Of a stretch of 64,000 nucleotides of DNA, positions 3,183-64,000 are shown piece after piece. The position numbers and the translations under genes are program-made. Under the pieces are notes generated by a model that worked only from the letters and a program-made list of their open reading frames with translations, was not told the origin of the DNA and searched no databases. The stretch lies in the NCBI RefSeq assembly GCF_056712565.1, contig NZ_CM160072.1; one strand, written 5' to 3'. Positions within the stretch are counted from its first letter, which is position 1. Each line of letters opens with the position of its first letter.

Positions 3183-6573
<3,391 letters not shown>

Positions 6574-6801
6574 CGCACAGTCCATTCTTAATCAAATGAT
6601 TGATTAAGATTATGACTCCATAGGGGAGTTGTCCAGTATGGCTAAGAATTTTAGCTACGCCAGTCACAGGGATAATTTATGCGCTGCGTCACAAAAACTG
6701 CTACACTCCGCTCCCTCATGACATTGTGGTTTTTGTCATTTTCCTTTTCAGTATCTCCCTGAAAACTACACCGGTAACGGTCGGGGCGGTTCGGAGTAGT
6801 T

Positions 6802-8163
6802 ATGTCTTTCGATTCTTTGGGTTTAAGCCCTGATATCCTGCGCGCCGTTGCCGAGCAGGGTTACCGTGAACCCACCCCTATTCAGCAGCAGGCGATCCCT
6901 GCGGTGCTGGAAGGCCGCGACCTGATGGCCAGCGCCCAGACCGGTACCGGCAAAACAGCGGGCTTTACGCTGCCGCTGTTGCAACACCTGATCACTCGCC
7001 AGCCGCACGCCAAAGGGCGTCGTCCGGTACGCACGCTCATTCTTACCCCGACCCGTGAACTGGCGGCGCAGATTGGCGAAAACGTCCGTGATTACAGCAA
7101 ATATCTGAACATTCGTTCGCTGGTGGTGTTTGGCGGTGTCAGCATTAACCCACAAATGATGAAGTTGCGCGGCGGCGTTGATGTGCTGGTGGCAACGCCG
7201 GGACGTCTGCTGGACCTGGAACATCAAAATGCAGTGAAGCTGGATCAGGTTGAAATCCTCGTCCTTGATGAAGCTGACCGCATGCTCGACATGGGCTTTA
7301 TCCACGATATCCGTCGCGTGTTAACAAAACTGCCAGCGAAGCGCCAGAACCTGTTGTTCTCCGCGACCTTCTCTGACGATATTAAAGCCCTGGCGGAAAA
7401 ACTGTTGCACAACCCGCTGGAAATCGAAGTGGCACGCCGCAATACTGCGTCTGATCAGGTGACCCAGCACGTTCACTTTGTCGATAAGAAACGCAAACGC
7501 GAATTGCTGTCGCATATGATTGGGAAAGGGAACTGGCAGCAGGTGCTGGTGTTTACCCGTACCAAACATGGCGCTAACCATCTGGCTGAACAGCTTAATA
7601 AAGACGGCATCCGTAGTGCGGCGATCCACGGTAATAAATCGCAAGGTGCGCGTACTCGTGCGCTGGCCGATTTTAAATCGGGCGATATTCGTGTACTGGT
7701 GGCAACTGACATCGCTGCGCGCGGTCTGGATATCGAAGAGTTGCCGCACGTCGTCAACTATGAGTTACCAAACGTACCGGAAGATTATGTTCACCGTATC
7801 GGGCGTACTGGCCGTGCGGCGGCAACTGGCGAAGCATTGTCGCTGGTGTGTGTTGATGAACACAAACTGCTGCGTGATATCGAAAAACTGCTGAAAAAAG
7901 AGATCCCGCGCATTGCGATTCCGGGGTATGAGCCGGACCCGTCAATCAAAGCCGAACCGATCCAGAACGGTCGCCAGCAACGTGGCGGCGGTCGTGGACA
8001 GGGCGGTGGTCGCGGTCAACAGCAACCACGCCGTACGGAAAGTGGTGCGAAGTCTGGTAACGCGAAGCCCGCAGAAAAACCGTCTCGTCGTCTCGGCGAT
8101 GCCAAACCGGCAGGCGAACAACAACGTCGCCGCCGTCCGCGTAAACCTGCCGCTGCGCAGTAA
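6802..8163 (+). CDS. rhlE: ATP-dependent RNA helicase RhlE (DEAD-box)
   Basis: Q-motif and Walker A (AQTGTGKT), DEAD box ([14 protein letters not shown]), [11 protein letters not shown] motifs; Arg/Gly-rich C-terminal tail. Confidence 0.95.
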
Positions 8164-8214
8164 TCTTTTATGCCGGGCTATGCCCGGCATGAGACTGATG
8201 ACAAACACAAAACT

Positions 8215-8313
8215 GCCTGATGCGCTACGCTTATCAGGCCTACGTGAACTCTGCAATATATTGAATGTGCATGTTTTTGTAGGCCGGATAAGGCGCTCGC
8301 GCCGCATCCGGCA
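8215..8313. repeat. REP/BIME cluster (two inverted REP units) in the rhlE-ybiA intergenic region
   Basis: gcctgatgcgctacgcttatcaggcctac and gtaggccggataaggcg...cgccgcatccggca are canonical E. coli REP palindromes; preceded by hairpin tgccgggctatgcccggca at 8171-8189. Confidence 0.6.
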
Positions 8314-8395
8314 TTTCACAACAAGCACTTGTCAGCCATTTGCGAGCGCGGCAAAAAGATTTCTCTGTTTTAACGCCCACAAGCCACCCGATGCG

Positions 8396-8590
8396 TTACT
8401 TCTCCGCAGCCAATTGTCCGCGCAACGCCATTAAAAGGTACCCCAGGCGATTCTTGCCCTGACCATTACCGCCATCTCCCCAGTAAGCATCATTTTGCGT
8501 ATGCTCAACCAGTTTTGCGGACGCGGTTGCCCGCAAGAGTGTACGCAGTTCTGCATGTTGTTCGAATTTAGCGCGAAGCGCTTTACGCAT
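8396..8590 (-). pseudogene. ybiA: 5'-truncated remnant of ybiA (NADAR-family N-glycosidase); only the C-terminal ~64 codons are homologous
   Basis: Minus-strand ORF 8396-8701 (101 aa): last 64 aa (MRKALRAKFEQHAEL...DAYWGDGG...GKNRLGYLLM...) match the YbiA C-terminus; first 37 aa are read antisense through the dinG promoter and LexA box up to the dinG ATG. Intact YbiA is about 160 aa. Confidence 0.6.
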
Positions 8591-8666
8591 CATCCTGCTG
8601 GTTATTGCGAGCCGCTTTCCCGAAACAGAAAAACCATTACCCCTGAAAACCGAAAAATGCCACAAT

Positions 8667-8686
8667 ATTGGCTGTTTATACAGTAT
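8667..8686 (+). promoter_or_regulatory. dinG SOS (LexA) operator, non-canonical box
   Basis: tattggctgtttatacagta about 15-35 bp upstream of the dinG ATG; matches the known atypical dinG LexA site (from memory). Confidence 0.5.
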
Positions 8687-8699
8687 TTCAGGTTTTCTC

Positions 8700-10850
8700 A
8701 TGGCATTAACCGCCGCGCTTAAAGCGCAAATTGCCGCCTGGTATAAGGCGCTTCAGGAACAGATCCCCGACTTTATTCCCCGTGCGCCGCAGCGGCAGAT
8801 GATTGCGGACGTCGCCAAAACGCTGGCCGGAGAAGAAGGGCGGCATCTGGCGATTGAAGCCCCTACCGGCGTTGGGAAAACGCTCTCCTATTTGATCCCC
8901 GGCATCGCCATTGCCCGCGAAGAGCAAAAAACGCTGGTGGTAAGTACCGCCAACGTGGCATTGCAGGATCAGATCTACAGCAAAGATTTACCGCTGCTGA
9001 AAAAGATCATTCCCGATCTTAAATTCACTGCCGCTTTTGGGCGTGGGCGCTACGTTTGCCCGCGTAATCTGACAGCGCTCGCCAGCACTGAGCCCACGCA
9101 ACAGGATCTGCTGGCGTTTCTTGACGATGAACTGACGCCGAACAATCAGGAAGAGCAAAAACGTTGTGCGAAGCTGAAGGGCGATCTCGACACTTATAAA
9201 TGGGATGGTCTGCGCGATCATACTGATATCGCTATAGATGATGATCTCTGGCGTCGTTTGAGTACCGACAAGGCCAGCTGCCTCAACCGCAACTGTTATT
9301 ACTATCGCGAATGCCCGTTTTTTGTCGCTCGTCGGGAAATTCAGGAAGCGGAAGTGGTGGTGGCAAACCATGCGCTGGTGATGGCGGCGATGGAAAGCGA
9401 AGCGGTATTGCCTGACCCGAAAAATTTACTGCTGGTGCTGGACGAAGGTCATCACCTGCCGGATGTGGCGCGGGATGCGCTGGAGATGAGCGCCGAAATC
9501 ACCGCGCCGTGGTATCGGCTACAGCTGGACTTGTTCACGAAACTGGTCGCTACCTGCATGGAGCAGTTTCGCCCGAAGACCATCCCGCCGCTGGCGATCC
9601 CTGAACGTTTGAATGCGCATTGTGAAGAGTTGTATGAGCTTATCGCCTCGTTAAACAACATTCTCAATCTCTACATGCCTGCCGGGCAGGAGGCAGAGCA
9701 CCGTTTTGCGATGGGCGAACTGCCAGATGAAGTGCTGGAGATCTGCCAGCGGCTGGCAAAACTCACCGAGATGCTGCGTGGCCTGGCGGAGTTATTTCTT
9801 AACGATTTAAGTGAGAAAACCGGCAGCCATGACATTGTACGTCTGCATCGGTTGATTTTGCAGATGAACCGCGCATTGGGGATGTTCGAGGCGCAAAGCA
9901 AACTCTGGCGGCTGGCGTCTCTGGCGCAATCTTCCGGTGCGCCGGTGACCAAATGGGCGACGCGGGAAGAGCGCGAAGGGCAGCTACACCTTTGGTTTCA
10001 CTGCGTGGGAATACGTGTCAGCGATCAGCTGGAAAGGCTGCTGTGGCGCAGTATTCCGCACATTATTGTTACCTCCGCAACCTTGCGTTCGCTGAACAGT
10101 TTTTCGCGTTTGCAGGAGATGAGTGGGCTGAAAGAGAAAGCGGGCGACCGTTTTGTGGCACTGGATTCCCCTTTTAACCACTGTGAACAGGGCAAAATTG
10201 TTATTCCCCGGATGCGCGTTGAGCCTTCCATCGACAACGAAGAGCAGCACATTGCCGAAATGGCGGCCTTTTTCCGTGAACAGGTGGAGAGCAAAAAACA
10301 TCTCGGTATGTTGGTGCTGTTTGCCAGCGGGCGTGCGATGCAGCGCTTTCTCGACTATGTGACGGATTTACGCCTGATGTTGCTGGTGCAGGGCGATCAG
10401 CCACGTTATCGCTTAGTTGAACTGCACCGCAAACGCGTTGCCAACGGTGAGCGTAGCGTGCTGGTGGGCTTACAGTCCTTTGCCGAAGGTCTTGATCTGA
10501 AAGGCGATCTGCTCAGCCAGGTGCATATCCACAAGATCGCTTTTCCGCCCATCGACAGCCCGGTGGTGATCACCGAAGGTGAATGGCTGAAAAGCCTCAA
10601 CCGCTATCCGTTTGAGGTGCAAAGCCTGCCGAGCGCTTCGTTTAACCTGATTCAGCAGGTTGGGCGACTGATTCGAAGCCACGGTTGCTGGGGGGAAGTG
10701 GTTATCTACGACAAACGCTTGCTGACAAAAAATTATGGCAAGCGACTACTGGATGCATTACCGGTATTTCCGATAGAGCAACCGGAAGTCCCTGAAGGTA
10801 TAGTTAAAAAGAAAGAAAAAACGAAATCCCCACGCCGTCGGCGGCGTTAA
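8700..10850 (+). CDS. dinG: ATP-dependent DNA helicase DinG (716 aa)
   Basis: 716-aa ORF MALTAALKAQIAAWYKALQEQ..., Walker A APTGVGKT, DEGHH box, Fe-S cluster cysteines (CLNRNCYYYRECPFF). Confidence 0.95.
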   Translation: MALTAALKAQIAAWYKALQEQIPDFIPRAPQRQMIADVAKTLAGEEGRHLAIEAPTGVGKTLSYLIPGIAIAREEQKTLVVSTANVALQDQIYSKDLPLLKKIIPDLKFTAAFGRGRYVCPRNLTALASTEPTQQDLLAFLDDELTPNNQEEQKRCAKLKGDLDTYKWDGLRDHTDIAIDDDLWRRLSTDKASCLNRNCYYYRECPFFVARREIQEAEVVVANHALVMAAMESEAVLPDPKNLLLVLDEGHHLPDVARDALEMSAEITAPWYRLQLDLFTKLVATCMEQFRPKTIPPLAIPERLNAHCEELYELIASLNNILNLYMPAGQEAEHRFAMGELPDEVLEICQRLAKLTEMLRGLAELFLNDLSEKTGSHDIVRLHRLILQMNRALGMFEAQSKLWRLASLAQSSGAPVTKWATREEREGQLHLWFHCVGIRVSDQLERLLWRSIPHIIVTSATLRSLNSFSRLQEMSGLKEKAGDRFVALDSPFNHCEQGKIVIPRMRVEPSIDNEEQHIAEMAAFFREQVESKKHLGMLVLFASGRAMQRFLDYVTDLRLMLLVQGDQPRYRLVELHRKRVANGERSVLVGLQSFAEGLDLKGDLLSQVHIHKIAFPPIDSPVVITEGEWLKSLNRYPFEVQSLPSASFNLIQQVGRLIRSHGCWGEVVIYDKRLLTKNYGKRLLDALPVFPIEQPEVPEGIVKKKEKTKSPRRRRR

Positions 10851-13213: not shown

Positions 13214-13290
13214 GTAGGTCTGATAAGACGCGGTAGCGTCGCATCAGGCATCTGTTGCCGGATGCGGCGTAAACGCCTTATCCGTCCTAC
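13214..13290. repeat. REP/BIME cluster in the hcxB-ybiJ intergenic region
   Basis: gtaggtctgataagacgcggtagcgtcgcatcaggca followed by ccggatgcggcgtaaacgccttatccgtcctac. Confidence 0.6.
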
Positions 13291-13293
13291 GAA

Positions 13294-14158: not shown

Positions 14159-14836
14159 TCAGATCTCCGACCATTCCCGCAGCAGATTATGATAAAGATT
14201 GAGCAGTGACAGGATCTCTTCACTTTCGCCGTAGCGGCTTTTCAGCGACTGAATATTGTTGTCCAGTTCAAACAGCATGGCGCGCTTTTTATCATCACGG
14301 ATCATCGACTGGATCCACATAAATGATGCCACTCGCACGCCGCGGGTTACGGGTGTCACGCAATGCAGGCTGCTGGAGGGATACAACACCAGATCGCCTG
14401 CCGGGAGTTTTACCCGATGTTGCCCGAAGGTGTCATTAACGACCAGTTCGCCGCCGTCGTAGCTTTCTGGATCGCTTAAAAACAGCGTGGCAGAAAGGTC
14501 AGTGCGCATCCAGCCGTTTTGTGGATGGCTGCGTACTGCGCCATCCACATGAAAACCATAGGTTTCATTGTTCTGATAGCGATTAAACAGCGGCGTGGAA
14601 AGGGTACGCGGCAAGGCCGCGGCAAAGAACAAAGCATGTTGGTTAACCGCGTTCAGCACCTCATTTTGCAGGGCGGCGTACAGGGCGCTGCGGGTGTCTA
14701 CTTGTTGATTGTTCTTAACTTGCGCACCTTGTGCGCCGGTGGTGACGCGCCCATCCACCCATTCGGCTTGTTCCAGTTGTTCGCGAAAACGGGCGACGTC
14801 CTGTGGCGATAACACGCCGGGAATGTGGTACATCAT
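14159..14836 (-). CDS. ybiX: YbiX, PKHD-type Fe(II)/2-oxoglutarate-dependent hydroxylase (225 aa)
   Basis: Start trimmed to [12 protein letters not shown]; lies immediately downstream of fiu on the same strand (fiu-ybiX operon). Confidence 0.88.
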
Positions 14837-14902
14837 ACAAGTTCTCCAAAAAGTGGGGCCTGCGCCCCACACCGATTTTTAACAGCAGGCAATGGTGCTC
14901 AG

Positions 14903-15002
14903 GTGCCGGATGCGGCGTGAACGCCTTATCCGGCCTACCAAATGATGTGAATTCAGTGTATTGCACAACCTTGTAGGCCTGATAAGCGCAGCGCATCAGG
15001 CA
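14903..15002. repeat. REP/BIME cluster in the ybiX-fiu intergenic region
   Basis: gtgccggatgcggcgtgaacgccttatccggcctac and gtaggcctgataagcgcagcgcatcaggca. Confidence 0.6.
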
Positions 15003-17041
15003 GTCCTGCTCTCGCCATCAACATTAGTGAGCCTTGCGCCCCACATCTGAATCAGAAATGCATATTGGCTGTGAGCAAGAAGGTTCTTGGCTCGCCCGGG
15101 TGATAACGGTAGCCGCTCTTATTGATTGAGGCGACGTAATCGGTATCAAACAGGTTGTAGACGTTTAGCTGGAAGTCGAGATTGCGATTAACCCGATACC
15201 CCAGTTTGGCGTCGGCGACCCAATAACCTTCGGTAAATGCTGGCGTCCCCACCGCGCCGTCTGAACCTTTATGCATACTGCCGATATACCGTGCGCCCGC
15301 ACCAACAGAAATATCATCGGTTGCCTGATACTGGCTCCATAAGGTGAAGGCGTGTTCCGGGGTATACGGCAGCGATGAGGAACCATCCTGGGCAACATCT
15401 TTGCCGTTTTTGATAGTTGCTTTTTGCTGGGTATAGCCGCCAATCATCTGCCACGCGGGAGTGATATTCCCGGCCACGGATATCTCGTAGCCTTCGACAC
15501 GTTTCTTACCATATTGCGAATAAGTCCCGTCATCATTTTGCTCAACTTCATTTTCAATATCAGTACGGAACAGCGCGGCGGTAAGTAGCAGGCGTTTATC
15601 CAGAACCTGCCATTTGGTGCCAATCTCGCTGGTGTTGGCTTTTTGCGGTTTAAAATCGGTGCGGTTGGCACTGTTACCGCTGCCAGACTGCGCAAGGGCG
15701 AAGTTGTTGCCGCCCGGCGGCTGCTGGGAAACGGCATAGTTAATATAGATATTGCCGTTTTCCGTCAGGTGATACAGCGCCCCGGCTTTCCAGTTCACCA
15801 GATTGCCCGACTTGGCGGTGTCGACGGTGGTGACCGGAGAACCTTTTGCCACGCCAGCAGGGCAGGTGATGGCACCGCGCCCGCTGCCGCCGCAGGCGGT
15901 GGCACTGTCATATTCAGTATGATAATTATCCAGACGGATCCCACCGTTCAGCTCAAAATCACGGGTGATTTGCAGCGTATCGAAGGCATAAATTGCGAAG
16001 GTATCCGTCTGACCATTGGCGTTTGCGCCGTTGCGCGTCAGGCCACCGGGATGAATGCTGCTGTCAGGATGATAAATATTTACCGCCGGTAACGTCACCG
16101 GATTAACGCCATAGTTAGTCTGTGTTTCGCGGGTAAATTCCACGCCGGTACTGACATCATGACCGATAGCGCCGGTATAGAACGTCGAGGTCAGGTTGGT
16201 CTGGTTGGTGAGAATTTTGTTACTCACATCTTTGGTATTCGCCGTACGTGACCACGTCCAGCTATTCACATCGCTGGTGGGCTGGGTAATATTCGACGCT
16301 CCACCCATAATCGCCGTCATCAGGTAATCCTGCTTTACGCGCGACCAACGCGTAGTGTTGCGAATGGTGGTGTTATCGTTGATGTCGTGCTCAAAACGCA
16401 TGGTAGCGGTGTCGGTGGTCGAATCGTCGTAATCGGAATCCGTGCCGTAAAAGTTATGAGTATCAACTTTTCCGGAATGATTCAGGGCCGCTGTTCCCGC
16501 AGATGGGGCAGAATAACCCGGTAAACCGATGGTCGGAATGCCGCCGTCTGGCGTGTTGTGTTGGGTGACATGCAGATAATTAAGATACAAACGATTCGCT
16601 GTACCAAGGCCAAAAGCGACAGAAGGGGCGACGCCGTAACGCTCATTTTTGACTTTGTCGCGTCCGGCATCGTGCGTTTTTTCGCCCATTACATTCAGGC
16701 GCACCGCAGTGGTATCACCAATGACCTGATTGACGTCCAGCGTGCCGCGGCGGAACCAGGCGCTGCCAATACTGGCGGAGGCGTCAATGCCGGAATCATT
16801 GCGCGGCTGTTTGCTGATCATATTGATCGAGCCTGTCGGCGCGCTGCGCCCGTAGTCGGTGCCGGACGGCCCTTTAATTACTTCGACCTGCTCGGTATTG
16901 AAGGTGTCGCGCGAGACGCTGCCGATATCGCGAATGCCATCGATATAAATACTGTTAGAGGTATCGGCACCGCGCATATAAATGGCGTCGCCAGTGGTGG
17001 AGTTACCGTTCTCACCCGCAAAAAACGCACCCACGCCGGGG

Positions 17042-18467
17042 TAATGCCGATCAGTTAAGGATCAGTTGACCGATCCAGTGGCTGTGTAAGAATCCGGAAA
17101 CGCTCACTTGTTTCCGGATTTTTTTATGCACATTGGACAGGCTCTTGATCTGGTATCCCGTTACGATTCTCTGCGTAACCCACTGACTTCTCTGGGGGAT
17201 TACCTCGACCCCGAACTCATCTCTCGTTGCCTTGCCGAATCAGGTACTGTAACGCTACGCAAGCGCCGTCTTCCCCTCGAAATGATGGTCTGGTGTATTG
17301 TTGGCATGGCGCTTGAGCGTAAAGAACCTCTTCACCAGATTGTGAATCGCCTGGACATCATGCTGCCGGGCAATCGCCCCTTCGTTGCCCCCAGTGCCGT
17401 TATTCAGGCCCGCCAGCGCCTGGGAAGTGAGGCTGTCCGCCGCGTGTTCACGAAAACAGCGCAGCTCTGGCATAACGCCACGCCGCATCCGCACTGGTGC
17501 GGCCTGACCCTGCTGGCCATCGATGGTGTGTTCTGGCGCACACCGGATACACCAGAGAACGATGCAGCCTTCCCCCGCCAGACACATGCCGGGAACCCGG
17601 CGCTCTACCCGCAGGTCAAAATGGTCTGCCAGATGGAACTGACCAGCCATCTGCTGACGGCTGCAGCCTTCGGCACGATGAAGAACAGCGAAAATGAGCT
17701 TGCTGAGCAACTTATAGAACAAACCGGCGATAACACTCTGACGTTAATGGATAAAGGTTATTACTCACTGGGACTGTTAAATGCCTGGAGCCTGGCGGGA
17801 GAACACCGCCACTGGATGATACCTCTCAGAAAGGGAGCGCAATATGAAGAGATCAGAAAACTGGGTAAAGGCGATCATCTGGTGAAGCTGAAAACCAGCC
17901 CGCAGGCACGAAAAAAGTGGCCGGGACTGGGAAATGAAGTGACTGCCCGCCTGCTGACCGTGACGCGCAAAGGAAAAGTCTGCCATCTGCTGACGTCGAT
18001 GACGGACGCCATGCGCTTCCCCGGAGGAGAAATGGGGGATCTGTACAGTCATCGCTGGGAAATCGAACTGGGATACAGGGAGATAAAACAGACGATGCAA
18101 CGGAGCAGGCTGACGCTGAGAAGTAAAAAGCCGGAGCTTGTGGAGCAAGAGCTGTGGGGTGTCTTACTGGCTTATAATCTGGTGAGATATCAGATGATTA
18201 AAATGGCGGAACATCTGAAAGGTTACTGGCCGAATCAACTGAGTTTCTCAGAATCATGCGGAATGGTGATGAGAATGCTGATAACATTGCAGGGCGCTTC
18301 ACCGGGACGTATACCGGAGCTGATGCGCGATCTTGCAAGTATGGGACAACTTGTGAAATTACCGACAAGAAGGGAAAGGGCCTTCCCGAGAGTGGTAAAG
18401 GAGAGGCCCTGGAAATACCCCACAGCCCCGAAAAAGAGCCAGTCAGTTGCTTAACTGACTGGCATTA
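17042..18467 (+). mobile_element. IS4 insertion sequence (1426 bp) with 18-bp imperfect terminal inverted repeats and a 13-bp target-site duplication
   Basis: Left end taatgccgatcagttaag, right end (reverse complement) taatgccagtcagttaag; direct repeat acccacgccgggg at 17029-17041 and 18468-18480; encodes the IS4 transposase. Confidence 0.92.
17126..18454 (+). CDS. insG: IS4 transposase InsG (442 aa)
   Basis: [33 protein letters not shown]... recognised as IS4 transposase; ORF track starts 6 codons upstream. Confidence 0.92.
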
Positions 18468-18877
18468 ACCCACGCCGGGGACGTTTTTGAGCGCGTCGGT
18501 AAGGTTGGTTGCACCCTGATCTTTAATCACTTGTTCAGAAATCACCGTCATCGTGCGGGTAGTATCCGCTACCGGACGCGAGAATTTCGGATCGGCAGAT
18601 TGTTGTGGCGCATAAAGCGAAGGCGTTGATGCTTCGACAACCAGCGTGTCATCCGCGTTAGCTTGCCCTTCGGCAGCGAGTGCCTGCGCCACAGGCGTAA
18701 TACCAATACAAAGACCGGCAAAGAACGTGAGCGAATGAAATTGTCTGGCAGGGAAATTGCGATTGTTTTCCATTTTGCAGGTGACTTTTTCTTATATGGT
18801 GAAATTTTCACTGTCACGAGAAAGCATCTCTGCGGATGCGATGCCACTGTTAATCCCGTGATAGCGTCCGTGCAAGT

Positions 18878-18902
18878 GATAATAATTTTGATAAGTATTA
18901 TC
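18878..18902. promoter_or_regulatory. Putative Fur box upstream of fiu
   Basis: gataataattttgataagtattatc resembles the Fur consensus gataatgataatcattatc; about 105 bp upstream of the fiu start codon. Confidence 0.45.
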
Positions 18903-19037
18903 ACTTGGCGCGATTTTCTATCACCCATTGCGCGAAAAAGAAATACATTTATTTACATTGCGTTCATATTTGATGTTTTTTGCTTACAAATCGGACGAAA
19001 ACTGCATCCAGAGGCGAATGCAGTTACGTTGGTGGGG

Positions 19038-48617: not shown

Positions 48618-50966
48618 ATGCTGAGTTTATACGAAAAGATAAAGATAAGGCTGATAATTTTATTTTTATTGGCAGCACTGTCATTTATTGGTCTTTTTTT
48701 CATCATTAACTATCAACTGGTATCGGAACGCGCGGTAAAACGTGCCGATAGCCGCTTTGAACTTATTCAGAAAAACGTTGGCTATTTCTTTAAAGATATT
48801 GAACGTTCGGCCCTGACATTAAAGGACTCACTGTATTTATTAAAAAATACAGAGGAGATTCAACGTGCCGTGATTCTGAAAATGGAAATGATGCCATTTT
48901 TAGACTCGGTGGGACTGGTACTTGATGATAATAAATATTATCTCTTTTCGCGGAGGGCGAATGATAAAATCGTTGTTTATCATCAGGAACAAGTAAATGG
49001 ACCGCTTGTCGACGAGTCAGGGCGGGTTATTTTTGCCGATTTTAACCCATCGAAACGACCGTGGTCGATGGCTTCAGATGACTCTAACAACAGCTGGAAT
49101 CCGGCATACAATTGCTTTGATCGTCCGGGTAAAAAATGTATCTCTTTTACGCTACACATCAACGGCAAAGATCATGATTTGTTAGCGGTAGATAAAATTC
49201 ATGTCGATTTAAACTGGCGATATCTGAACGAGTATCTTGATCACATCAGCGCTAATGATGAAGTTCTATTTTTAAAGCAAGGTCATGAGATCATTGCTAA
49301 GAATCAACTCGCTCGTGAAAAATTGATTATTTATAATAGCGAAGGTAATTATAATATTATTGATTCTGTCGATACGGAATATATTGAAAAAACATCAGCG
49401 GTGCCAAACAACGCATTATTCGAAATCTATTTTTATTATCCTGGTGGTAATTTATTGAACGCATCAGATAAACTTTTTTATCTGCCGTTTGCTTTCATTA
49501 TTATCGTATTGCTGGTGGTTTATTTAATGACCACTCGAGTGTTCCGTCGGCAATTTTCTGAAATGACAGATTTGGTCAATACGCTGGCGTTTTTGCCCGA
49601 CTCTACGGATCAAATCGAGGCTCTGAAGATTCGTGAAGGCGATGCGAAAGAGATTATCAGCATCAAAAATTCGATCGCGGAAATGAAAGATGCTGAAATT
49701 GAACGGGCAAATAAATTGCTCTCGCTGATCTCTTACGATCAGGAAAGCGGTTTTATTAAAAATATGGCGATTATTGAGTCCAACAATAATCAGTATCTGG
49801 CTGTGGGGATCATCAAACTGTGTGGTCTGGAAGCTGTGGAAGCGGTGTTTGGTGTTGATGAACGCAATAAAATCGTCAGGAAATTGTGTCAGCGAATTGC
49901 CGAGAAATATGCGCAATGCTGCGATATCGTGACATTTAATGCCGATCTCTATTTACTCCTGTGCCGGGAAAATGTACAGACGTTTACCCGTAAGATAGCG
50001 ACGGTAAACGATTTTGACAGCAGTTTTGGCTACCGCAATCTGCGCATCCATAAGTCTGCTATTTGTGAACCTTTGCAGGGGGAAAACGCCTGGAGTTACG
50101 CAGAAAAGCTGAAACTGGCGATTTCCAGTATCCGCAACCATATGTTCTCAGAGTTTATTTTCTGTGATGATGCGAAACTCAACGAAATAGAAGAGAATAT
50201 CTGGATTGCGCGTAATATTCGCCATGCAATGGAAATTGGCGAACTATTCCTGGTCTATCAACCGATTGTTGATATTAACACCCGCACCATTTTGGGCGCG
50301 GAGGCGTTGTGCCGTTGGGTGTCTGCGGAGCGGGGGATTATTTCACCGCTGAAGTTCATTACCATTGCTGAAGATATCGGGTTTATCAATGAGCTGGGCT
50401 ATCAAATTATTAAAACCGCGATGGGTGAATTCAGACATTTTAGTCAGCGTGCGTCGCTGAAGGATGATTTCTTACTGCATATTAATGTTTCGCCCTGGCA
50501 GTTAAACGAACCACACTTTCATGAGCGTTTTACTACCATCATGAAAGAAAATGGCCTGAAGGCGAACAGCCTTTGTGTTGAGATCACCGAAACCGTGATC
50601 GAGCGAATTAATGAACATTTCTATCTCAATATTGAACAACTGCGTAAACAAGGGGTACGGGTATCGATTGATGACTTTGGCACCGGTTTGTCAAACCTGA
50701 AACGTTTTTATGAAATTAATCCAGACAGTATAAAGGTGGATTCGCAATTTACCGGCGATATTTTCGGTACTGCAGGAAAAATTGTGCGCATTATTTTCGA
50801 TCTGGCACGCTATAACCGGATCCCGGTGATTGCGGAAGGCGTAGAGAGCGAAGACGTTGCGCGTGAATTAATCAAATTAGGATGTGTTCAGGCTCAGGGG
50901 TATCTGTACCAGAAACCCATGCCATTCTCCGCCTGGGATAAAAGTGGAAAATTAGTAAAAGAGTAG
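48618..50966 (+). CDS. pdeI: c-di-GMP phosphodiesterase PdeI/YliE (membrane-anchored sensor + EAL domain, 782 aa)
   Basis: N-terminal TM, large periplasmic region, second TM, C-terminal EAL domain (EALCRW motif). Confidence 0.9.
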
Positions 50967-63579: not shown

Positions 63580-63627
63580 TAGATAAATTTCAGGCAACAA
63601 AAAAACCATTTATGTAAACGGGTTAAT

Positions 63628-63665
63628 GAAAACAATAAGTTAGATTAAAAACAATAAGTTAGGTT
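63628..63665. repeat. Tandem direct repeat (2 x ~18 bp) between rcdA and the integrase stop
   Basis: aaaacaataagttagatt followed directly by aaaaacaataagttaggtt; AT-rich. Confidence 0.45.
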
Positions 63666-63683
63666 GGTGGTCAGTGGTGGTTA

Positions 63684-64000
63684 TTACGGGGTAATGCCAA
63701 CCGCTGCCGCCACTTTGTCGCCACTTGGCAGCGTTGCCAGAGGATTGAAACGGAGCGCCGTTTCCAGATGATCCGGTGCCAGATGTGCGTAACGCATAGT
63801 CATTTTTATATCGTGGTGTCCGAGAATTTTTTGTAAGGCCAGAATGTTTCCACCCGACATCATGAAGTGCGCCGCAAACGTATGGCGCAGAACGTGTGTG
63901 AGTTGACCGCGAGGGAGCACGATAGACGTTTTTTCCATCACGGATAAAAATTGAAAATAGCAGTCTGTGAAGAAATTGAACCCATCAAGCGCCATGATCT
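63684..64000 (-). CDS. Phage-type tyrosine recombinase (integrase), C-terminal catalytic part only; gene continues beyond the window end
   Basis: Minus-strand translation ...LTHVLRHTFAAHFMMSGGNILALQKILGHHDIKMTMRYAHLAPDHLETALRFNPL... carries the conserved HxxR box and the RY(A)H tyrosine nucleophile motif of the integrase family; it resembles P2-family integrases (from memory, unverified). Confidence 0.8.
   Translation of the reverse strand, partial: IMALDGFNFFTDCYFQFLSVMEKTSIVLPRGQLTHVLRHTFAAHFMMSGGNILALQKILGHHDIKMTMRYAHLAPDHLETALRFNPLATLPSGDKVAAAVGITP

Follow-up and report, generated by a model that had tools for sequence, protein, structure and literature searches.

A recurrent IS4 insertion in fiu and the predicted loss of iron-responsive ybiX expression in Escherichia coli

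In Escherichia coli, the gene for the catecholate receptor Fiu belongs to the ybiI-ybiX-fiu-mcbA locus, all of which lies on the minus strand. In the DNA analysed here (64,000 nucleotides of contig NZ_CM160072.1, RefSeq assembly GCF_056712565.1, hereafter the window), fiu is split by a copy of the insertion sequence (IS) IS4. The reading that we favour, with a probability of roughly three in four, is that this is a recent insertion at a preferred target and that it imposes a polar block on the Fur-controlled fiu-ybiX(-ybiI) unit. The insertion destroys fiu, knocking out the receptor, while the predicted loss of iron-responsive ybiX expression in this strain is well supported. What is left in the window is a sigma-70 promoter overlapped by a Fur box upstream of fiu, and no longer an uninterrupted fiu-ybiX(-ybiI) unit with an intact fiu. 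The coordinates of all features are collected in Table 1.

Dependence of ybiX on the fiu promoter

The fiu promoter and its Fur box are intact and orthologous to the site known in K-12. The sequence at 18889-18903 is the top match to TGATAATnATTATCA in the entire 64-kb window (13/14), a second Fur box overlaps it at 18877-18891 (12/14), and both overlap the -10 element of the promoter-like site. This region, which is kept in K-12, CFT073 and O157 (within the box, the free spacer base alone differs), coincides with the Fur peak mapped in K-12 by chromatin immunoprecipitation with exonuclease digestion (ChIP-exo), 115-139 bp upstream of the fiu ATG, and a fiu promoter-lacZ fusion assayed with and without Fur has shown that Fur represses this promoter. 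No other Fur-like site, that is, no match of at least 13/19 to the Fur consensus, was seen between 13500 and 18800. The top match to the 19-bp consensus in the window (15/19, at 48924-48942) falls inside the coding region of pdeI (yliE), as judged by position mapping to the type strain, and is probably a chance AT-rich match.

The evidence that ybiX answers to this promoter comes largely from K-12. The genes fiu, ybiX and ybiI adjoin on one strand, ybiX has no separate Fur site, and the three share the Fur-1 iModulon; in the literature, fiu-ybiX is listed as a Fur-repressed operon and, elsewhere, fiu/ybiX/ybiI as one operon. The supplementary data of Gao et al. (2023) give a single Fur ChIP-exo peak, upstream of fiu, for which the assigned unit is fiu-ybiX in MG1655 and fiu,ybiX,ybiI in W3110 and W. 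According to the expression values tabulated in that supplement for MG1655, fur deletion raises fiu from ~38 to ~1763 (46-fold), ybiX from ~10 to ~381 (38-fold), ybiI from ~22 to ~185 (8-fold, log2 3.04) and ybiJ from ~31 to ~75 (2.4-fold), with no change for mcbA. Derepression therefore follows a gradient (fiu > ybiX > ybiI > ybiJ) falling with distance from one promoter. Computed from the same tabulated values, the ybiX/fiu RNA ratio is 0.26 with Fur and 0.22 without it, so ybiX RNA tracks the fiu promoter, whereas a constitutive promoter belonging to ybiX would have raised the ratio in the repressed state. Among the tabulated values for W3110, fiu and ybiX are both down to ~2-3 units.

Data from K-12 also bear on how the two genes are linked. 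The fiu-ybiX gap measures only 41 bp there, and the intrinsic fiu terminator, with its mapped RNA 3' end, takes it up and leaves no space for a promoter. Term-seq places the primary 3' end of the fiu RNA on the last U of the tract (839219), 12 nt before the ybiX ATG. Since the main fiu RNA ends ahead of ybiX, the latter must be made by read-through from the fiu promoter, which amounts to ~20% of transcripts (a loss of ~80%). In the window, the terminator, the ribosome-binding site and the start codon of ybiX (a name taken from the annotation of matching RefSeq loci) are unchanged relative to K-12: the hairpin GTGGGGC-GCAG-GCCCCAC is followed by five T, then directly by the ribosome-binding site GGAGA and the ATG at 14836. 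A text search for data on the ybiX transcription start returned nothing relevant, and a structural paper on Fiu contains no mention of ybiX.

The window departs from K-12 in carrying, ahead of this terminator, a 174-bp block of repetitive extragenic palindromic (REP) sequences, or bacterial interspersed mosaic element (BIME). The block has the marks of such elements, namely an inverted pair of imperfectly palindromic ~35-bp REP units, an intergenic position and copies elsewhere (it matches REP copies of the window at 8190-8314, 13251-13293 and 34689-34818). On either side of it stands the 11-bp direct repeat TGTGGGGCGCA, a sequence that belongs to the stem of the fiu terminator. An Rfam scan of the region found nothing beyond a match of the block to the REP325-derived naRNA4, which at 48 bits stays under the threshold of 59.5. 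The block is present in 555 of the 5426 complete E. coli genomes that we surveyed (~10%), including the type strain DSM 30083 and CFT073, in which the fiu-ybiX gap is 215 bp, and it is a polymorphism confined to certain lineages. The first-pass annotation of the window, which had placed only a REP cluster between fiu and ybiX, was thus right about the REP sequences but had overlooked the terminator and the polymorphic nature of the block, as well as the repeated use of the insertion site by IS4.

The inserted IS4 and its expected effect on ybiX

The element in fiu is a member of the IS4 family by its length, its inverted ends (TAATGCCGATCAGTTAAG and CTTAACTGACTGGCATTA), its DDE transposase with an IS4 N-terminal domain (a single open reading frame with Pfam matches to Nterm_IS4, E 3e-33, and DDE_Tnp_1, E 3e-31), its target duplication within the range of 11-13 bp and its target preference. 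It differs from the resident IS4 of K-12 by 1 nt in 1426, and other genomes hold copies that are 100% identical to it. The transposase is encoded on the plus strand and fiu on the minus strand, so that the two have opposite orientations. In these respects the first-pass annotation is borne out, since both the 1.4-kb IS4 inserted opposite to fiu and the Fur box that it had described upstream of fiu are real, and all of the elements it named were found where it had put them or a few bases away.

Table 1. Features of the interrupted fiu locus, by position in the window
Feature	Position	Strand	Description
ybiX	14159-14836	-	Intact, 225 codons; 2-oxoglutarate/Fe(II) oxygenase (PKHD-type hydroxylase); Pfam 2OG-FeII_Oxy_3, PKHD_C
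Intrinsic fiu terminator	14848-14870	-	Stem GTGGGGC/GCCCCAC (14870 to 14853), U-tract (14852 to 14848); -15.6 kcal/mol
REP/BIME block	14872-15045		174 bp; between fiu stop codon and terminator; absent from K-12 (alignment)
fiu 3' fragment	15052-17041	-	Remaining plug and beta-barrel; Pfam Plug (profile positions 38-106), TonB_dep_Rec_b-barrel
Target-site duplication	left 17029-17041; right 18468-18480		13-bp direct repeat ACCCACGCCGGGG (repeat search)
IS4	17042-18467	+	1426 bp; 18-bp imperfect terminal inverted repeats 17042-17059 and 18450-18467
Hairpin and T7 run, inside IS4 left end	17088-17125	+	Would halt plus-strand transcription arriving from outside; directly before transposase start
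IS4 transposase gene	17126-18454	+	442 aa from ATG; in RefSeq, 448 aa from TTG at 17108
Terminator-like hairpin, inside IS4 right end	18430-18463	-	11-bp stem, then UCUUUUUC; -18.7 kcal/mol, z-score -6.1
fiu 5' stub	18465-18773 (native 18773 to 18468)	-	102 native codons: signal peptide, TonB box DTLVVEA, plug start
fiu promoter	18877-18924, including Fur boxes (promoter-like site 18924 to 18897)	-	-35 GTGATA, -10 GATAAT (promoter scan)

The insertion splits fiu after codon 102, within the plug domain, leaving a 5' stub that matches the Pfam Plug profile at positions 2-35 and whose stop codon, TAA, consists of the three bases at the very end of IS4. The 3' fragment is without promoter or start signals of its own. 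The same two pieces of fiu are annotated as a pseudogene in the RefSeq record of strain FDAARGOS_1252. What remains at the 5' side is a compact Fur-controlled unit (18465-18924) made up of the promoter, 102 codons, the IS4-derived stop and the IS4 hairpin, which under iron limitation could give an abundant periplasmic fragment with a TonB box. K-12 Term-seq also reveals an RNA 3' end within fiu, at 841454 (window 18696), 77 nt past the start codon, and hence the existence of a short 5' fiu RNA in the wild type; this end lies upstream of IS4 and should be unaffected by the insertion.

What would happen to transcription downstream can be laid out step by step. Transcripts started at the fiu promoter when iron is limiting would enter IS4 by its right end, be translated for 102 codons and stop at the TAA supplied by IS4, four bases past which they would form the right-end hairpin followed by the UCUUUUUC U-tract. 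Those that escape would have to cross ~1.4 kb of antisense IS4 RNA and then the 2 kb of the fiu 3' fragment, and such a stretch, ~3.4 kb of RNA past the hairpin with no complete reading frame, would offer the conditions for Rho-dependent termination; for ~0.5 kb of IS4 (18410-17890, minus strand), C is in excess of G. The REP block and the native terminator would still lie ahead of any survivors, and as a result ybiX, together with the iron-responsive share of ybiI, would drop to a low, iron-blind basal level.

The first structure to be met would be the right-end hairpin, whose predicted likeness to a terminator is no less than that of the fiu terminator, for which an RNA end has been mapped. 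It consists of the terminal inverted repeat pairing with its own internal copy. The hairpin at the left end is not terminator-like on the minus strand and faces the other way, so there is a terminator-like hairpin inside each end, both facing incoming transcription, and IS4 therefore looks polar in either orientation. An IS in a promoter-proximal gene, with a stop codon and termination signals in the direction of the operon, is what is found here, as far as prediction from sequence goes. Classically, IS4 counts as polar in both orientations, and classical IS4 insertions in galT were strongly polar; the literature search that we made for classical IS4 polarity data and for a target consensus returned nothing usable.

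Nor does the element appear to compensate by driving ybiX itself. No minus-strand promoter-like site facing ybiX was found inside IS4 or across its left junction, by a scan with a cut-off of at least 8/12 and, for the junction, also by eye, and none was found by scanning the gap at 14837-15051. The first-pass annotation had proposed that ybiX is either silenced by polarity or transcribed from within the IS, had pointed to the left end of IS4 as a place to look for a promoter, and had considered that an independent promoter in the gap would overturn its proposal. The second option finds no support, no outward or hybrid promoter having been found at the left end, and the scan of the gap gave no promoter-like site that would overturn the first. 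The first has strong indirect support in so far as ybiX is uncoupled from the fiu promoter, but "silenced" is too strong a word, for what should go is the iron-responsive component of ybiX expression, whereas a low basal level may remain.

Several points weigh against a polar block. The polarity of IS4 in this orientation is itself predicted. Because intrinsic terminators are leaky and fiu, once derepressed, has a very strong promoter, some iron-responsive read-through could survive. Distal fiu contains two weak minus-strand promoter-like sites, at 16098-16069 (9/12) and 15563-15535 (8/12), and genomic SELEX in vitro (systematic evolution of ligands by exponential enrichment) showed a weak peak of RpoE holoenzyme within fiu, ~0.5 kb before the stop codon of the gene. 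From either source ybiX could be transcribed independently to some extent, but neither would make it respond to iron. A search of distal fiu for a sigma-E motif that might account for the SELEX peak found none. Finally, the direct evidence for the operon all comes from strains without the 174-bp REP block, which the lineage of the window has.

The alternative that survives best, which we nevertheless regard as unlikely, is that IS4 is only partly polar, enough derepressed fiu transcription crossing it for ybiX still to respond to iron, if at a lower level. By the tabulated K-12 values, ~20% of transcripts get past the native fiu terminator, whose hairpin is about as strong, the derepressed promoter reaches ~1760 units in the same table, and the U-tract of the IS4 hairpin (UCUUUUUC) is interrupted. 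Leakage at one hairpin would, however, be followed by the long untranslated stretch with its C-rich portion, and then by the REP block and the native terminator, at each of which losses multiply.

It is rather improbable that the REP block had already uncoupled ybiX in the lineages that carry it (B2-type strains such as CFT073, the type strain and that of the window), so that IS4 changes nothing for this gene. BIMEs can attenuate transcription and stabilise upstream RNA, and the RNA of the window gap is predicted to fold strongly (-83.6 kcal/mol over 231 nt). CFT073, with its long gap, is alone among the nine strains of the Fur regulon table in having fiu only, with N/A for ybiX. Blanks in that table follow the definitions of transcription units (ybiI is blank for MG1655 despite its log2 of 3.04), and we judged the CFT073 entry uninformative as a lead for uncoupling by REP sequences. 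Furthermore, the signals immediately preceding ybiX are those of K-12, and the scan of the added DNA showed no promoter.

Least probable of all is a promoter of its own for ybiX, in distal fiu or in the fiu-ybiX gap, which would leave its expression essentially normal in spite of the loss of fiu: the weak sites and RpoE peak mentioned above, the basal ~10 units tabulated for ybiX in Fur-repressed K-12 and a mouse-gut evolution paper that names a ybiX 'promoter region' in the ybiX/fiu gap all speak for it, but it has to contend with a ybiX/fiu ratio that does not rise under repression, with the W3110 values, with an induction that is Fur-dependent when the only Fur site is upstream of fiu, with a K-12 gap taken up by the terminator, with a window gap devoid of promoter-like sites and with the fact that an RpoE promoter would not yield an iron response.

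Age and recurrence of the insertion

The polar block that we favour would be a recent acquisition. The window and the type strain DSM 30083, in which fiu is intact, are collinear and differ by 7 SNPs (single-nucleotide polymorphisms) over 62.2 kb, and up to 63605 the IS4 with its duplication is the sole structural difference between the two. The insertion must therefore be very recent, which makes the intactness of ybiX uninformative about selection. From 63606 to 64000 the window departs from DSM 30083 and contains, on the minus strand, the 3' end of a gene for a phage-integrase-like protein (tyrosine recombinase), apparently the border of an element integrated between rcdA and ybjL that is absent from the type strain.

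The same insertion is found elsewhere. IS4 occupies fiu in 31 of the 5426 complete genomes, and in all nine carrier genomes examined its position is identical, with duplications of 12 or 13 bp and in both orientations. FDAARGOS_1252 and SX4 share the 13-bp length seen in the window, and six other carriers have a 12-bp duplication; in SX4, a G-to-T SNP is present in both copies of the duplication and must consequently be older than the insertion. M15 has the element at the same place in fiu but turned the other way round, and its duplication is 12 bp long. Between carrier strains the flanking sequences diverge by up to 3%, while some carriers have a close relative in which fiu is intact, namely the window and DSM 30083 (0.01% apart), CMZE120 and R3 (0.01%), and VR50 and M15, which are 0.02-0.03% away from K-12. 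The copies of IS4 inserted in fiu differ by 0-12 SNPs. A shared site, two orientations, divergent flanks and near-identical relatives with an intact gene together point to several recent, independent insertions, and the fiu site is a recurrent IS4 hot spot.

The target rule given for IS4, AAA-N20-TTT, fits both the fiu site and the site of the resident IS4 of K-12 but not the second IS4 site of M15. Seven intact loci of different lineages have the same empty 30-bp site, AAAAAACGCACCCACGCCGGGGACGTTTTT, whose two arms, an A-run and a T-run, are similar to those of the K-12 resident site. A review of the IS4 family describes the specificity in the target arms as striking. Roughly half of the genomes contain IS4, the median being one copy per carrying genome, and the same fiu-IS4 junction occurs in one metagenome contig.

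Two carriers have additional rearrangements. The M15 locus contains two IS4 copies (4003-5428 and 9221-10646), one of which is the copy in fiu; the other is located between hcxB and ybiE, where it is flanked by the 12-bp duplication GTCCAGTGGCGG and the right arm of the site is without a T-run. In the locus of 2017C-4173W12 (6769-8905), a 711-bp copy of IS200C is nested in the IS4 borne by fiu, between its left end and the start of the transposase gene.

Related insertions and meaning for catechol uptake

Polar insertions of this kind are classical, IS1, IS2 and IS4 having been found in gal and lac (IS4 in galT). As in these cases, the IS in fiu sits in a promoter-proximal gene, and its stop and termination signals are predicted to abolish downstream expression; as with classical IS4 insertions, the same target is reused, in both orientations and with duplications of variable length (12 and 13 bp here, 11-13 bp in the older literature). 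The fiu case differs in that the fiu-ybiX(-ybiI) unit already has an internal terminator, which only ~20% of transcripts normally pass to reach ybiX. The resident IS4 of K-12 (insG, between yjgZ and nanX) has the same inverted ends, a 12-bp duplication and flanks that follow the same target rule, but it occupies a different, intergenic locus and looks ancestral, whereas the copy in fiu is a secondary, recent transposition. The mechanism is ordinary. A literature search for papers in which fiu and IS4 appear together found no description of fiu::IS4, which is a recurrent allele previously undescribed; what is new here is the hot-spot nature of the site, the variability of the REP block and the expression of ybiX by read-through of a mapped terminator.

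The closest parallel comes from laboratory-evolved, cefiderocol-resistant E. coli, in which ISKpn8 was found between fiu and ybiX; according to the authors, the insertion distances ybiX from its promoter and lowers its expression (bioRxiv 10.1101/2025.02.14.638246). In the same study, a cirA/ybiX double deletion brought the cefiderocol minimal inhibitory concentration (MIC) up to 0.5 mg/L without plasmid and to >32 mg/L with either mutated KPC plasmid. In both cases an IS parts ybiX from the fiu promoter, but ISKpn8 belongs to another IS family, is intergenic, leaves fiu intact and arose in a selection experiment, whereas IS4 lies inside fiu, abolishes Fiu and represents a natural, recurrent allele. 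More widely, fiu-ybiX is the E. coli version of a conserved and syntenic, Fur-regulated pair of TonB-dependent receptor and 2-oxoglutarate/Fe(II) oxygenase, other versions being piuA-piuC in Pseudomonas and Acinetobacter and cciT-cciO in Caulobacter. The papers on these systems deal with intact pairs or clean deletions and describe no IS hot spot in the receptor gene, and loss of the oxygenase alone is reported to alter susceptibility to catechol conjugates.

Fiu is an entry route for catecholate microcins. Together with CirA, it is also an entry route for cefiderocol and other catechol conjugates, loss of either receptor alone causing a small shift in MIC and loss of both a large one. An allele that removes Fiu, and probably the induction of YbiX too, in one step would therefore leave the strain one cirA mutation away from reduced uptake. 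Occupation of the fiu site may even be selected, making it a contingency locus for escape from catechol-type antibiotics or microcins, with the stub possibly competing for TonB, a notion that we consider rather improbable.

In conclusion, fiu::IS4 has arisen again and again in unrelated E. coli, always at one base pair, and its junction sequence offers an easy screen. The strain of the window and DSM 30083 constitute a clean natural experiment on the dependence of ybiX in lineages with the REP block, and, if a polar block is indeed what IS4 imposes, a single transposition takes away Fiu and, with it, iron-induced YbiX expression.

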